DNA of 64,000 bases from a virus (taxonomy: Duplodnaviria > Caudoviricetes). How positions within the stretch are numbered: the first letter of the stretch is position 1; each line of letters begins with the position of its first letter. Location of the stretch: IMG/VR virus record IMGVR_UViG_3300034375_009028, one strand, 5' to 3'. Made by a program: the position numbers and the translations under genes. The notes below the pieces were generated by a model. The model did not search any database, was not told the origin of the DNA, and was given only the letters and a program-made list of their open reading frames with translations. Below, one piece after another: positions 1,920-52,669 of the stretch.

Positions 1920-3682
1920 AAAATCTATATATGTTCCAACCGCAATATGCGGTAGAAGTTAGAAATGAAGAAACCTATTGGTTACCTTATAGTGTAGGTT
2001 GTCTGTGGGCATACTGTACTCAGTATAAAGATGTTGCAAGTGGATATCATCTTAAGGATTTAATTTTTAAAAGAGAAAATCCTGAAGAACTTGTTAATAG
2101 ATTAGAGAATCCTGTAGTTTGTGCCTTTAGTACATATATTTGGAATGAGCAATATAATTTGCACGTTGCTAAATTAATAAAAGAAAAGTATCCAGAATGT
2201 ATTATAGAATTTGGAGGACCACAAGCAACAGATAAACTTGCAAAGTATGAATTTATTGATTGTATTATTGTGTCTGAGGGTGAGGAAGCATTTTTAGATT
2301 TGCTTACGAGGGTGATGTATCAAGAACCTTTTGAAAGAATCTATCGCAAGCAAAGAATTGAAACTTTAGATTTTCCCAGTCCATACCAAATGGGAATCTT
2401 TGATAAAATTATAGAAGACAATCCAAATGTTCTCTGGTCAATGACTATAGAAACAAATCGCGGTTGCCCTCATAGATGTACTTATTGTGACTGGGGTGGA
2501 ATGACATATCAAAAAGTAAAACATTTTGATATAACACGAGTCAAAGAAGATATTGATTGGGCAGCAAAGCATAATGTTGGTTTTATTTTTAATGCTGATG
2601 CAAACTTCGGTATGTTTAAAGAACGCGATGTTGAGATTGCAAAATTGTTTAGAAAAGCAGCAGATGAAGGTAAACTGGAAGCGATCAATGTCCAATACTC
2701 AAAAAATTCAACTGAAGTTATTTTTGAGATTGCACAAATCCTTGGTGACATTAGTAGGGGTGTAACATTAAGTGTTCAAACTATGAACGAACCAACACTT
2801 AAATCAATCAAGCGCAAAAATATGAGCATCAATAAGATCTCAGAGCAGATTGAGAAGAGCAAAAAATATGGAGTGAAAACATATACTGAACTTATCCTTG
2901 GTCTTCCAGATGAAACCTTAGACAGCTGGAAAGAAGGATTCTCAAAAATTCTTGAATGTGGACAACACGAATCAATTGATATTTGGTTTTGTCAAATGTT
3001 TGGTGATACTGAATTGAACAGTGCAACTTCTAGGGAAGTTTTTGGTATTAAAACTATTAAAGCAGAAGATTATATGTCATTCAGTAATGATGAATATGAC
3101 ATTAAAGAAGTTATAGAATTAATATCAGAAACAAATACGATGAGTAATGATGAACTTATTGAGGCATATATGTATGGTTGGTTGATAGTTCAATTCCATA
3201 TCGCAGGATATACTCAGTTAATTGCAAAACACTTCTTCAATAATTTAAACATAACTTATAGAAAGTTTTATGATGCTTTATTTGACTATGTTAGGAATGA
3301 TGTTGGTATTATTGGTGATCATTATAGAGAAATTGAGAGAGCAGTAAGTCATTACATGAAGACTGGAAAGATACTTGATACTGGTAAGCATGGGCACACA
3401 CTACATGCAGGTAGTTTTGCATTTATGTTTAATAATAAAGATGTAATATTTAAAATGGCAGAAGACGTTAGCAAATCATTTATTGATCTTAAATCTGATG
3501 TGTTGAAACTACAAAGAGCATTCATTTTTGATGAGAACGCTGAATATCCGTTCTATCTTGAATGCTCTGATAGTAAGTATAAAGTCGATACCGAGTTCAA
3601 AGAATTTGATAAGAATGATCCTCACACAGTTTTTATTTTGAGACGTAAGGGATTATTAAAAAATCAATTAACCTTATGTTAA
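1916..3682 (+). CDS. Cobalamin (B12)-binding radical SAM protein, paralog of the preceding gene
   Basis: Same architecture (CAFSTYIWN, EFGGPQ, VSEGE, ETNRGCPHRCTYCDWG, DANFG); ATGA overlap with the upstream gene. Confidence 0.9.
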   Translation: MKNLYMFQPQYAVEVRNEETYWLPYSVGCLWAYCTQYKDVASGYHLKDLIFKRENPEELVNRLENPVVCAFSTYIWNEQYNLHVAKLIKEKYPECIIEFGGPQATDKLAKYEFIDCIIVSEGEEAFLDLLTRVMYQEPFERIYRKQRIETLDFPSPYQMGIFDKIIEDNPNVLWSMTIETNRGCPHRCTYCDWGGMTYQKVKHFDITRVKEDIDWAAKHNVGFIFNADANFGMFKERDVEIAKLFRKAADEGKLEAINVQYSKNSTEVIFEIAQILGDISRGVTLSVQTMNEPTLKSIKRKNMSINKISEQIEKSKKYGVKTYTELILGLPDETLDSWKEGFSKILECGQHESIDIWFCQMFGDTELNSATSREVFGIKTIKAEDYMSFSNDEYDIKEVIELISETNTMSNDELIEAYMYGWLIVQFHIAGYTQLIAKHFFNNLNITYRKFYDALFDYVRNDVGIIGDHYREIERAVSHYMKTGKILDTGKHGHTLHAGSFAFMFNNKDVIFKMAEDVSKSFIDLKSDVLKLQRAFIFDENAEYPFYLECSDSKYKVDTEFKEFDKNDPHTVFILRRKGLLKNQLTLC

Positions 3683-11048: not shown

Positions 11049-11076
11049 TTTTTAGAAAACCTTTTTTATATTTATC

Positions 11077-11811
11077 TTATAACTCGTTCTTGATTAGTAA
11101 TATATCAAATGCCGCAGTAAAACGACCATTATTACTTCTAGTAGATAGGCGGACATCAATATCGGTTTTTTCTGGCATTTCTTGTGGAAACGAAAACTTG
11201 TAAGTATATTCTCCACCACCAGTAACTTCAAATGTATGTCCAACTCTAAAAATTGTAGCAACTGAATTGTATCTTACATACATCCATCCAGTAGCATCAG
11301 CACCCTCCTGTGCAGTAGCAACACCCTGATAGAGATATCCAGTATATCCTGCGGGTACTGTATAAACTGCCATCAGAGTTTGTCCCGCATCAGCAAGAAT
11401 ACGAAGAACTTGTGTGCCACCTCTGGAAAAGTTGAGTTCTCCTACATTGGTTCCAGCACCACTAGAAACATAACCACGATATACTCTCTTAAATGTCTTA
11501 GTTCCTGTAACTGTACCAGCACTAGAGAGAGTAAATTCTTCTGAAATTAATTCAAAATTTTCATCAAGACCTTCAATAGTTACGACTTTACCATTATCAT
11601 CTGCACCGACTTGTGCTCCTACAAGAACTCCAGGAGTATCAAACGCACTCCAAGGATAAAGTGTATCTTCCTTGTCCCATATAGATGCAGTTGTATTGTT
11701 TGATTGTGAAGGAGTTGCACCGAACTTGTGGATCTGTGATGCACCTCTTACTTTTCCACGGGCAACGTTAAGATCAAACTGTTCGTCCCAGATATAATTA
11801 CGAAATCCCAT
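11077..11811 (-). CDS. Hypothetical, probably virion-associated beta-rich protein
   Basis: 244-aa ORF in the morphogenesis module; TAATG coupling to the upstream ORF. Confidence 0.7.
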   Translation of the reverse strand: MGFRNYIWDEQFDLNVARGKVRGASQIHKFGATPSQSNNTTASIWDKEDTLYPWSAFDTPGVLVGAQVGADDNGKVVTIEGLDENFELISEEFTLSSAGTVTGTKTFKRVYRGYVSSGAGTNVGELNFSRGGTQVLRILADAGQTLMAVYTVPAGYTGYLYQGVATAQEGADATGWMYVRYNSVATIFRVGHTFEVTGGGEYTYKFSFPQEMPEKTDIDVRLSTRSNNGRFTAAFDILLIKNEL

Positions 11812-12305
11812 TATCTACAATTCCAACGTCTCAATGCTTTATTTATTCTAGAATCTGGATCTCTTGCTGTTTTAGAAGAAGTTCGTTTGGATTTCATACC
11901 TTTCATTCTACTACAAAACGAAGAACGACGCTTTTTTCTTTTACCTTCTGGATTTTTCTCTGTTACAGCAGTTTGTAATTTTGAACCTGGATTTTCTTGG
12001 CGATATTTTTTTACCGTATCTTTGCTCATACCATCAGTTCTGTCTTTGCGATTTGCTGATTGCCAATCTTCATCAATCCAAGATAATGTTCCATGATTGT
12101 AGTGCTTTGCACTAGTAATGGTAACTGTACCTTTAGGTGTAGATGGATATACGTTTTGAACTACTGCTCCAGGATACTCATTTTGAAGTTGTTCACCAAG
12201 TTCTTTTCTTGATGGTAAATCTCCATTCTCTATAACCATTTCCATATTATAGAGTCTTCCTCTCCAAAGAACGTCGGCGGTAAAATGTTCACCGACGTTA
12301 TCTAC
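11811..12305 (-). CDS. Basic protein (FCSRMKGMK...SRINKALRRWNC). Called from ATG 12245, but the frame is open to the frameshift site at about 12305; probably the C-terminal extension of the upstream ORF
   Basis: The 20 in-frame codons upstream of ATG 12245 (VDNVGEHFTADVLWRGRLYN) complete a domain paralogous to one inside ORF 12302-13591. Confidence 0.75.
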   Translation of the reverse strand, partial: VDNVGEHFTADVLWRGRLYNMEMVIENGDLPSRKELGEQLQNEYPGAVVQNVYPSTPKGTVTITSAKHYNHGTLSWIDEDWQSANRKDRTDGMSKDTVKKYRQENPGSKLQTAVTEKNPEGKRKKRRSSFCSRMKGMKSKRTSSKTARDPDSRINKALRRWNCR

Positions 12306-12325
12306 TTTTTTGGCAGATCTCCTCC
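12270..12325 (-). other. -1 programmed ribosomal frameshift signal: GGAGG (12321-12325), A_AAA_AAG (12305-12311), TAG, hairpin (12270-12299)
   Basis: Slippery heptamer in the correct phase directly before the stop codon; SD-like element 9 nt upstream; 8-bp stem AACGTCGG/CCGACGTT 5 nt downstream. Confidence 0.8.
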
Positions 12326-13591
12326 AATAACAATTGTACCAACACTGCCTCCAGAGATATTAACATCTTCTTTTACACAATTAGGAACTACTTTACCATT
12401 CTTTTTCTTGGTTCCCTTTGCCTTGTAACCATCCCAGCACTTGCTAGCACCAACGTTGGCGCGTGCTGTTGCCATTTTACCCTCAACATTAAGAGTTTCT
12501 GGATAATTTTTATCACCTGGCTTTCTTTTGGGTTTTCCTGCTTTACGTCTCGCATGAATGTTGTCCCAAAGACCTTTCTTCTCCTCAATTTCTATATCAT
12601 CACTCTTTGAACACTCACAAGGTGTCTTTTTACATTTGCCGCATTCTTCTTTAAGTTCTACTTCTTCTTTAGTAGTAACTTTAAATAATGGGGAATCAAA
12701 ATTTGCATGATTGCTAGGAAGATCTGAAGTAGAGAACTGAAGAACTCTTCCTCCAGGATAAACCTTCTCAATTTCTGCTTGAATATCTTTCTTTGTAGGT
12801 AACTTTGCTTGTGGGAAGAACATTCTTAGATATTGTGAACGTCCCCTCCAACTAACAATGACTGATAGCAAATGACCAAACTCTGAAGGTAGTCTAACTG
12901 CCTCTTCTAGTTCAACTTCCTCATTCTGACGCTCTGCTTCTAACTTAGCAGCAATCGCCATTTGGCGGATTTTTTCATCAGACTTACCTTTAAATTGAGG
13001 TTTTTTAGACTTACGAAAATCTTTAATTACATCTCCCATGTCTGCTTTTGCAAGATCCATACCTTCTTTTGTTGTATATCCTGCTACAGCATCTGTATTA
13101 TGCTCAGTATCAGTAAGTTTTGCTTGCATCCAGGCAGGAAGATTTTTTTCCTTTTTACCAATACTCTTCTTAACTTTCTTTAAGTTTTCTTGGGATTTAC
13201 TAATCTGTTTATGTGCCATGGACACTTCATGATCTTTTTCTTCTCTCTGTGAGAGTAAAGATTCTGGTGTAATTAAGTCAATAAATTCTACAAATTTGTT
13301 ACCAAAAGCATCTTCAATTGTAACTGATTCATCAACATTTGGAATTGGTTTGCAACAGTTTTCTTCAGAGCACCAATAGTGCCCATCACTACACCTCTCC
13401 TCTCCAAGAATTTTATCTACTAATTTTATTTCTTCTTTCTTAATAGTTGGTAGTCCAACCTTCATAGAAGGACGCAATTTTTTATCGGCAACTTTTCTTT
13501 CATTTTCATTTGGAGAATCCTTCATAGCAGCAATTCTATTCTGCTTTCTTGCTGAAGAATGTGCTTTAGTATCTATATTAAAACTGGCCAT
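12302..13591 (-). CDS. Modular, charged 429-aa protein (candidate internal head protein or precursor)
   Basis: Mosaic of short modules separated by Glu-rich linkers (EEVELEEA, EEVELKEE); GATAAATA late promoter at 13614-13621. Confidence 0.75.
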   Translation of the reverse strand: MASFNIDTKAHSSARKQNRIAAMKDSPNENERKVADKKLRPSMKVGLPTIKKEEIKLVDKILGEERCSDGHYWCSEENCCKPIPNVDESVTIEDAFGNKFVEFIDLITPESLLSQREEKDHEVSMAHKQISKSQENLKKVKKSIGKKEKNLPAWMQAKLTDTEHNTDAVAGYTTKEGMDLAKADMGDVIKDFRKSKKPQFKGKSDEKIRQMAIAAKLEAERQNEEVELEEAVRLPSEFGHLLSVIVSWRGRSQYLRMFFPQAKLPTKKDIQAEIEKVYPGGRVLQFSTSDLPSNHANFDSPLFKVTTKEEVELKEECGKCKKTPCECSKSDDIEIEEKKGLWDNIHARRKAGKPKRKPGDKNYPETLNVEGKMATARANVGASKCWDGYKAKGTKKKNGKVVPNCVKEDVNISGGSVGTIVIGGDLPKK

Positions 13592-13612: not shown

Positions 13613-14041
13613 CTATTTATCGTTTAGTCGCTTTTGATTTTTTAAATATTTAGATAACTCATCTGTAGATCCAAAAAATACTGCATTGTTAGTAACATTT
13701 GTTGTCTTCCCTTTGGGATTTTCCTCATCAAGTTCTTTCATCTTCTTTTGAAGATCTACTATTTTGTCCGTCGCATCTGATACATTTTTAATTAATTGTG
13801 CAACAACTTCATATGCTCTTGGTTGTCCACCATCAACAGCAATTTCTAAAGCACTATCAAGTGCTTCTTGACCCTTTTCTATAATTGAATATAAATTTCC
13901 TCTGGTATATTCATAATCTTTAGTAATATCTTCATTAGGATCTTTTATAGGAACTATTTTATCTTTTCTTTCTTTTTTTCTCTCTACTATATCAGCATCA
14001 ACGTTAAAAGTTGAATTTAAGTCATCGAAGTGTTCTTTCAT
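13613..14041 (-). CDS. gp16: Terminase small subunit
   Basis: DYEYTRGNLYSIIEKGQEAL, PRAYEVVAQLIK, TNNAVFFGSTDEL; lies between gp15 and gp17. Confidence 0.9.
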   Translation of the reverse strand: MKEHFDDLNSTFNVDADIVERKKERKDKIVPIKDPNEDITKDYEYTRGNLYSIIEKGQEALDSALEIAVDGGQPRAYEVVAQLIKNVSDATDKIVDLQKKMKELDEENPKGKTTNVTNNAVFFGSTDELSKYLKNQKRLNDK

Positions 14042-52569: not shown

Positions 52570-52581
52570 GAGAACCTCAAT

Positions 52582-52669
52582 AAAAAAGGTGTGTGGTCTT
52601 CCCACACACCTAATCTACATGCCACTCTCAACCCCATCAACCAGTGCTGTGACACCTGATCAACTGTCC
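52582..52669 (-). promoter_or_regulatory. Overlapping terminator (10-bp stem plus T-run, 52582-52611) and promoter TTGATG-17-TAGATT with a GGACAG-N8-TGTCACA box
   Basis: Direct reading. Confidence 0.7.

Follow-up and report, generated by a model that had tools for sequence, protein, structure and literature searches.

Ribosomal frameshifting on the slippery heptamer A_AAA_AAG is known from the Escherichia coli gene dnaX, where the heptamer is preceded at ~9-10 nucleotides (nt) by a Shine-Dalgarno-like element and followed at 5-6 nt by a stem-loop, and two products (tau/gamma) are made. An A_AAA_AAG-type slip near the end of the upstream open reading frame (ORF), together with a downstream structure, also operates in the orfA-orfB pairs of IS3-family elements (IS911, IS150, IS3), in which termination gives a short product and the shift a long fusion; IS911 has an upstream Shine-Dalgarno-like element as well. 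In phages, late structural genes (T7 gene 10A/10B and lambda G/GT) have a -1 shift close to their 3′ end, which yields a minor, C-terminally extended form beside the major one. Here we describe a locus whose sequence suggests a design of this kind. It lies in a 64,000-nt stretch of viral DNA (IMG/VR virus record IMGVR_UViG_3300034375_009028, Duplodnaviria; Caudoviricetes), called the window below, and consists of two ORFs, ORF-A and ORF-B, which in all likelihood form one gene decoded in two ways by a -1 frameshift, with predicted products of 429 and 593 amino acids (aa).

The putative frameshift signal and its conservation

The 3′ end of ORF-A reads GGA GGA GAT CTG CCA AAA AAG TAG on the minus strand, and contains a slippery heptamer, a Shine-Dalgarno-like GGAGG and a stop codon that adjoins the heptamer (Table 1). 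A preliminary description of the locus had reported these elements, and the end of ORF-A, the heptamer and its phase, the position of the GGAGG, the open -1 frame and the length of 593 aa were all confirmed. The hairpin was found where that description had placed it, 5 nt from the heptamer, but its stem has 10 base pairs (bp) and not 8. The stem arms, AACGUCGGUG and CGCCGACGUU, include one G.U pair and enclose a 10-nt loop; the minimum free energy of the stem-loop is -16.2 kcal/mol (z = -2.9), and one of 200 shuffled sequences folds as well.

The -1 frame is open from position 12359 to the TAA at 11813-11811, so that the fused product comprises 429 + 164 = 593 aa. Between 12359 and the annotated ATG at 12245 this frame contains no ATG, GTG or TTG codon, and the 20 bridging codons between the heptamer and that ATG can therefore be translated only by ribosomes that arrive in the -1 frame. 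The peptide VDNVGEHFTADVLWR is predicted to be encoded solely in this frame upstream of the ATG.

To place the heptamer in its genomic background, we counted in-phase A_AAA_AAG in stop-to-stop ORFs of at least 100 codons in the 64-kb window. There are four, and only in ORF-A does a stop adjoin the heptamer and the -1 frame continue as a long ORF (164 codons, versus 2, 6 and 23 codons at the other three). Another site, on the plus strand (52576-52610), has an in-phase ATA AAA AAG with a strong GTGTGTGG...CCCACACAC hairpin immediately behind it; its -1 frame is open for just 23 codons, and the ORF itself may be spurious. None of the Rfam frameshift-element families (e.g. the dnaX and IS1222 elements) matched positions 12100-12450, even at E values up to 10.

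Conservation was assessed in a clade of 12 contigs: the window, L085-L090, L094/095, L135-L137 and L144. The contigs other than the window derive from other samples and from JGI, ENA (MEGAHIT and SPAdes naming) and Logan assemblies, and were found by protein look-ups and a metagenome scan. The run of six A residues (A6), the adjacent TAG and the hairpin are identical in design in the eleven further contigs, whose flanks differ, and this excludes an assembly indel. In addition, an RNA-library contig from another sample covers positions 11987-12602 without a single difference and bridges the shift site. Of the sequencing runs examined, only RNA libraries gave contigs that bridged or approached the site; the two DNA runs gave just short pieces of related phages over it.

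The heptamer is invariant in the 12 contigs. The codon that supplies its first A varies (CCA, ATA, GCA) and always ends in A. Equally invariant are the zero-frame TAG and the GGAGG, the latter at a distance of 8-9 nt and encoded as GGA GGA or GGA GGC, whereas the same Gly-Gly is encoded as GGT GGA or GGT GGT in the canonical relatives described in the next section. Of the 43 positions that make up the heptamer, the hairpin and the spacer between them, 6 are variable; the share of variable positions is 39% in the preceding 66 nt and 31-35% in the sequence that follows. Whole modules of ORF-A have been gained or lost in L094, L135, L137 and L144, and its end, IGG(D/E)xxKK-stop, was always kept. 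Every relative with this arrangement, including those with diverged flanks, carries the heptamer, the adjacent stop, the GGAGG and the hairpin. Among nine distinct hairpin sequences, 96.7% of the positions in the stem are paired: eight pairs are constant, a U.G pair is replaced by C-G, and three sequences lack the terminal pair; three of the ten loop positions are variable.

Downstream of the slip the variable sites are distributed 16/6/49 over codon positions 1/2/3 of the -1 frame, and the protein identity of ORF-B falls to 83% within the clade. One member (L137, 373-744) has the same frameshift site and a shortened DUF6321 module (…EDWQSSSKTARDPDS…), most of the module having been deleted in frame.

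A domain that continues across the putative shift site

In ordinary cyanomyoviruses a large modular ORF ends with DUF6321 and is followed by a separate gene of ~105 aa, whose start overlaps the stop of the large ORF. This small gene (phrog_1742) is contained in one frame in DSL-LC02, S-SCSM1, S-T4 and ~34 metagenomic loci, where a leader, a Gly-rich stretch and the segment VGExF.ADV.W.G..Y follow one another in a single frame. In one further locus, L006, the small ORF is truncated to 47 aa. In the window the first part of the homologous domain is encoded in frame 0 (…EDVNISGGSVGTIVIGG…) and the remainder in frame -1 (VGEHFTADVLWRG…).

A hidden Markov model (HMM) was built from 34 canonical small genes. 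It matched the fused product as one domain over residues 405-507 (HMM positions 7-105, 92.4 bits). The score was 79.3 bits for the -1 part alone (HMM 33-105) and 52.1 bits for the ORF-B protein started at the ATG (HMM 51-105). With the phrog_1742 profile the -1 part gave a match of 1.1e-17 over profile positions 33-97 of 108.

The AlphaFold model of a canonical ~105-aa member has a core with a predicted local distance difference test score (pLDDT) above 80 and contains strand 1 (residues 37-45), strand 2 (48-56), a helix (63-73) and then further strands. The ATG at 12245 aligns to the middle of strand 2, so that translation from there would leave out strand 1 and half of strand 2. In a fold search with the domain model, nothing significant was found in the PDB (best E 0.5), and the viral library gave family members only; the structure thus pointed to no particular function.

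The preliminary description had also noted a gapless similarity between this domain and an internal segment of ORF-A. The similarity is real and modest: BLASTP aligned the pair over 45 residues with 31% identity and E = 2e-8, the HMM matched the internal copy weakly (246-284), and fold matches were to large DUF6321 proteins. Behind the small domain follows DUF6321 (PF19846; ORF-B residues 67-141), with a score of 46.7 bits against a gathering cut-off of 28.5; the same module ends the large ORF in ordinary relatives.

Two kinds of apparent split were rejected as frameshift cases. The short DUF6321 proteins P0013-P0120 are C-terminal pieces of ordinary large ORFs with an internal Met start. The break inside DUF6321 of L005 (2900-2915) is an in-frame TAA where relatives have AAA, that is, a nonsense change or a sequencing error.

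Proposed decoding of the locus and alternative explanations

We propose the following course of events. ORF-A and ORF-B would most likely be co-transcribed as a late message. Ribosomes would read ORF-A as far as CCA AAA AAG, with Lys tRNAs on AAA in the P site and on AAG in the A site, and a fraction of them would slip back by one base onto AAA AAA. Base pairing between the 16S rRNA tail and the GGAGG at 9 nt upstream, the 10-bp hairpin at 5 nt downstream and probably slow decoding of the TAG, by then in the A site, may favour the slip. Ribosomes that stay in frame 0 would terminate and release the 429-aa product, whereas those that slip would continue for 164 codons to give the 593-aa product. 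The extension would complete a beta-beta-alpha-beta domain of the phrog_1742 type and carry the DUF6321 tail. The signal, its strict conservation, the coding signature of the -1 frame and the homology across the putative shift are seen in the sequences; the slip, its efficiency and the roles of the stimulators are inferred.

Several observations weigh against the frameshift or blur parts of its signal. Both products are predicted from sequence, and the fixed ratio between them that the preliminary description proposed is likewise inferred. Covarying stem pairs were looked for, and none of the pairs showed a compensatory change on both sides among the nine distinct sequences, so that a constraint on structure cannot be told apart from one on sequence or coding. 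The scarcity of synonymous changes in the stem is only suggestive (one of six third positions variable versus 61% background, p ~0.04 by our own binomial estimate). The stimulatory role of the GGAGG is uncertain because a conserved Gly-Gly is encoded there and because cyanobacteria make little use of Shine-Dalgarno pairing. A host tRNA-Lys(CUU) would lower the slipperiness of AAG. In the model of the small domain the frame-0, leader-like segment has low confidence (pLDDT ~50), which leaves the -1 bridging codons, and not the frame-0 tail, as the basis of the structural argument. An in-frame fusion was sought among the relatives and none was found, all proteins that combine the small domain with DUF6321 being of the split form; the comparable evidence is the stand-alone gene, which covers the shift site in one frame. 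Finally, the second ATG of ORF-B (12239) is conserved, and some independent initiation may occur there and yield a truncated product.

The last point leads to the alternative that survives best, although we consider it unlikely: two separate genes, in which ORF-A stops at the TAG, ORF-B is started from the ATG at 12245 or 12239, either independently or by termination-reinitiation, and the -1 codons further upstream are untranslated. Gene callers annotate the two parts in this way in all relatives, and in the ordinary relatives the homologous small gene is truly separate and coupled to its neighbour by the overlapping stop and start. In the window clade, however, the first ATG is not conserved (it is replaced by CTA or TTA in L089, L090 and L094), neither ATG has a conserved Shine-Dalgarno sequence at a working distance, and since either start lies inside strand 2, the product would be without about half of the 105-position family profile. 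The 20 codons that would be untranslated vary at 2/1/9 sites in codon positions 1/2/3 and match the family profile, a match worth 27 bits. This split and the homology to a single-frame protein of other cyanophages bear out the earlier suggestion that the bridging codons are under coding selection. Separate genes would also leave the invariant in-phase heptamer unexplained.

The frames could also be joined before translation, if RNA polymerase sometimes inserted an extra A into the run of six (seven in the marine group described below). The protein outcome (…PKKVDN…) would be identical, and for this reason the comparative protein evidence cannot separate ribosomal from transcriptional slippage. 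We regard slippage of the polymerase on this homopolymer run as very unlikely. Six A residues are short for productive slippage, which in known cases uses runs of ~8-9 or more, and it offers no role for the adjacent stop, the GGAGG or the hairpin conserved at 5 nt, all of which are features of ribosomal frameshifting. The RNA-library contig shows A6, though contigs hide rare variants.

The weakest alternative, an inactivating frameshift mutation or assembly indel in a former single 593-aa gene whose downstream part is decaying, would produce the same picture in a single sequence by the loss of one A, but is extremely improbable in view of the equal A-run length in the 12 contigs (different samples and assemblers) and in the RNA-library contig, the purifying selection on a clade that has nevertheless diverged downstream, the intact DUF6321 and the lack of any relative with a 'repaired' in-frame version.

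Gene context, marine relatives and comparison with known systems

The closest named relatives of the window are Kyanoviridae, and its source is an uncultured freshwater T4-like cyanophage; the stretch was matched in many freshwater metagenome runs. The locus sits between the genes of the small and large terminase subunits (TerS and TerL), i.e. in the gp16-gp17 region, which is a hypervariable hot-spot. The motif ATAAATA is depleted in the window (17 copies versus ~40 expected), and three copies precede genes of the ORF-A block: one upstream of ORF-A itself, and further ones on the minus strand just upstream of the 244-aa ORF (11840-11846) and the 89-aa ORF (11069-11075). By analogy with T4 late promoters these motifs may act as promoters. 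The ORF-A/ORF-B interval contains neither a late-promoter-like ATAAATA nor a terminator.

Table 1. Features of the ORF-A/ORF-B locus, its neighbours and related marine sites (window positions unless a locus is named)
Feature	Coordinates	Strand	Remarks
gp15	15036-14047	minus	
TerS	14041-13613	minus	small terminase subunit, PF11053
ATAAATA	13614-13620	minus	resembles T4-type late promoters; ORF-A starts 23 nt downstream
ORF-A	13591-12302	minus	429 aa, zero frame, modular, Lys-rich, end ...IGGDLPKK-TAG
Internal paralogous copy of the small domain	12877-12743	minus	inside ORF-A
Small domain	12379-12072	minus	homologous to the stand-alone ~105-aa gene (phrog_1742), spans the shift site, fused residues 405-507
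Shine-Dalgarno-like GGAGG	12325-12321	minus	9 nt 5′ of the heptamer, also codes Gly-Gly
Slippery heptamer A_AAA_AAG	12311-12305	minus	in phase with ORF-A (CC[A AAA AAG])
Zero-frame stop TAG	12304-12302	minus	directly 3′ of the heptamer
-1 frame extension	12305-11811	minus	164 codons and TAA; ORF-B is its ATG-started part
Bridging codons	12305-12246	minus	VDNVGEHFTADVLWRGRLYN; predicted to encode beta-strand 1 and half of beta-strand 2
Predicted stem-loop	12299-12270	minus	10 bp, 5 nt 3′ of the heptamer
5′ arm	12299-12290	minus	
Loop	12289-12280	minus	
3′ arm	12279-12270	minus	
ORF-B as annotated	12245-11811	minus	144 aa from the ATG, C-terminal DUF6321
DUF6321 (PF19846)	12047-11823	minus	basic C-terminal module ending ...RRWNCR
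244-aa ORF	11811-11077	minus	
89-aa ORF		minus	between the 244-aa ORF and TerL
TerL	10770-9124	minus	large terminase subunit
Marine site, L091	3755-3954		
Marine sites, L097-L130			
Marine site, L133 (P-HM2)	2995-3180		
Marine site, L134 (P-HM1)	2975-3156		

Besides DUF6321 no Pfam family matched the protein, and the matching PHROG families lack an assigned function. An ORF-A homologue in S-SCSM1 (SSCSM1_29) is labelled 'virion protein' in GenBank, and the virion proteome of this phage was determined by mass spectrometry (PMC9602691). The canonical ~105-aa gene starts with MKSFxQFxSE, in which M1, K2, F4, Q6, F7 and E10 are nearly invariant (small ORFs of L018-L056 and L138-L143). This start closely resembles MKTYQEFIAE, the capsid targeting sequence of T4 internal proteins, which is cleaved by the prohead protease (PMC8442874). 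The window copy is without such an N-terminus: here the domain is internal to ORF-A, and of the leader only the aligned Glu is kept, E10 corresponding to E409 of ...NCVKE (12379-12365 on the minus strand). A reasonable reading of these sequence similarities, though one weaker than the proposed decoding, is that the ORF-A/ORF-B product is a multi-module virion protein, probably head-internal, which would be processed by a protease and serve as cargo. Frameshifting might then set the number of copies that carry the last two modules.

The C-terminal third of ORF-A has marine relatives, a large group of ~420-aa proteins that end in …AEKK. The sequence GAA AAA AAG TA(A/G) was present in all 34 IMG/VR loci examined and in P-HM1; in P-HM2 the heptamer is present and the stop comes one codon later (AAG CAA TAG). 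The A run of the marine group is A7, as against A6 in the window clade. From the heptamer a -1 ORF of 50-66 codons (stop to stop) runs on and encodes a Cys/His module (phrog_32143), similar modules being found in frame inside large ORFs of other family members. The distance between the stop and a conserved downstream ATG is 14, 17 or 20 nt, indels thus keeping the frame. The heptamer is preceded at 7-11 nt by GGAG or AGGAG, for which three different amino-acid contexts were seen. Covariation from G-C to A-U occurs in a conserved hairpin (12 versus 8, none mixed, among the ATG-containing sequences). As this hairpin is 13-19 nt away from the heptamer and has the downstream ATG within it, we do not claim it as a frameshift stimulator. 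The two parts are annotated as separate genes in the cultured phages (PHM1_163/164 and PHM2_164/165). For P-HM2 the peptide predicted to bridge them in the -1 frame is AIGPVVVMPTLDDPDGMK (L133, 3001-3030).

The PHM2_164 protein belongs to the modular family of ORF-A. For PHM2_164 (L133, 1697-3013) and its counterpart at L134 1682-2989 the product name 'possible cytitidyltransferase' is unsupported, and no Pfam hit is on record for a close marine metagenome homologue (P0184, 422 aa).

Judged by their sequences, the marine loci are probably further instances of frameshifting, and the similar design makes a chance origin of the window site less likely. More tentatively, A_AAA_AAG frameshifting might recur as a portable device among T4-like cyanophages, in a family of polyproteins that consist of several modules and are probably head-internal. 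The freshwater clade would use it at gp16-gp17, and the Prochlorococcus phages P-HM1, P-HM2 and MED4-213 at another locus. It is possible, though we would not count on it, that the device sets the stoichiometry of cargo modules packaged in the capsid and delivered to the host, and that cyanobacterial ribosomes are capable of -1 frameshifting with Shine-Dalgarno assistance.

In lakes and oceans T4-like cyanophages rank with the most abundant viruses. If the frameshift is real, two 'hypothetical' genes are mis-annotated in them, including PHM1_163/164 and PHM2_164/165 of cultured Prochlorococcus phages; the real product is larger, and a conserved C-terminal module is made only by recoding. The locus would offer a tractable three-part signal of the dnaX/IS911 type in cyanobacteria, with P-HM2 on Prochlorococcus MED4 as a culture system, and would fit the view that modular virion cargo is encoded in the hypervariable gp16-gp17 region. 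The searchable literature, to which the 2016 review of recoding and the paper on PRFect belong, yielded no account of frameshifting in cyanophages or at this hot-spot, in agreement with the preliminary description, and no programmed frameshift is annotated in T4-like cyanophages. As the mechanism is classical, the advance would be a new, well-supported instance and not a new principle.

The locus also differs from the classical systems. After the dnaX shift, translation ends nearly immediately and the short product results, whereas in the window the shift would bypass the adjacent stop and make the long one; the two sites have no sequence or Rfam-model relationship, and the host of the window phage is a cyanobacterium. 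Compared with the IS3 family, the window gene would encode a phage virion protein, is not accompanied by inverted repeats or transposase domains, and has a stop that adjoins the heptamer. T7 10A/10B and lambda G/GT are other genes (capsid and tail assembly chaperone) with other slippery sites. A tail assembly chaperone frameshift of the G/GT type, which would be expected between the tail tube and tape-measure genes, was ruled out for this locus by its position between TerS and TerL and by the lack of a match to any chaperone family; according to Vladimirov et al. (2022), as cited in PMC10885494, frameshifting plays no part in how T4-like phages make their tail-chaperone forms.

The nearest relative of the split domain is the stand-alone ~105-aa gene, to which fused residues 405-507 are homologous and whose nearly invariant E10 aligns with E409. 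Unlike that gene, the window copy no longer has a start codon or the MKSFxQFxSE leader, is joined to a large ORF and is divided by the putative shift; and whereas the stand-alone gene ends in ...LEWI, the window copy carries DUF6321 behind it instead.

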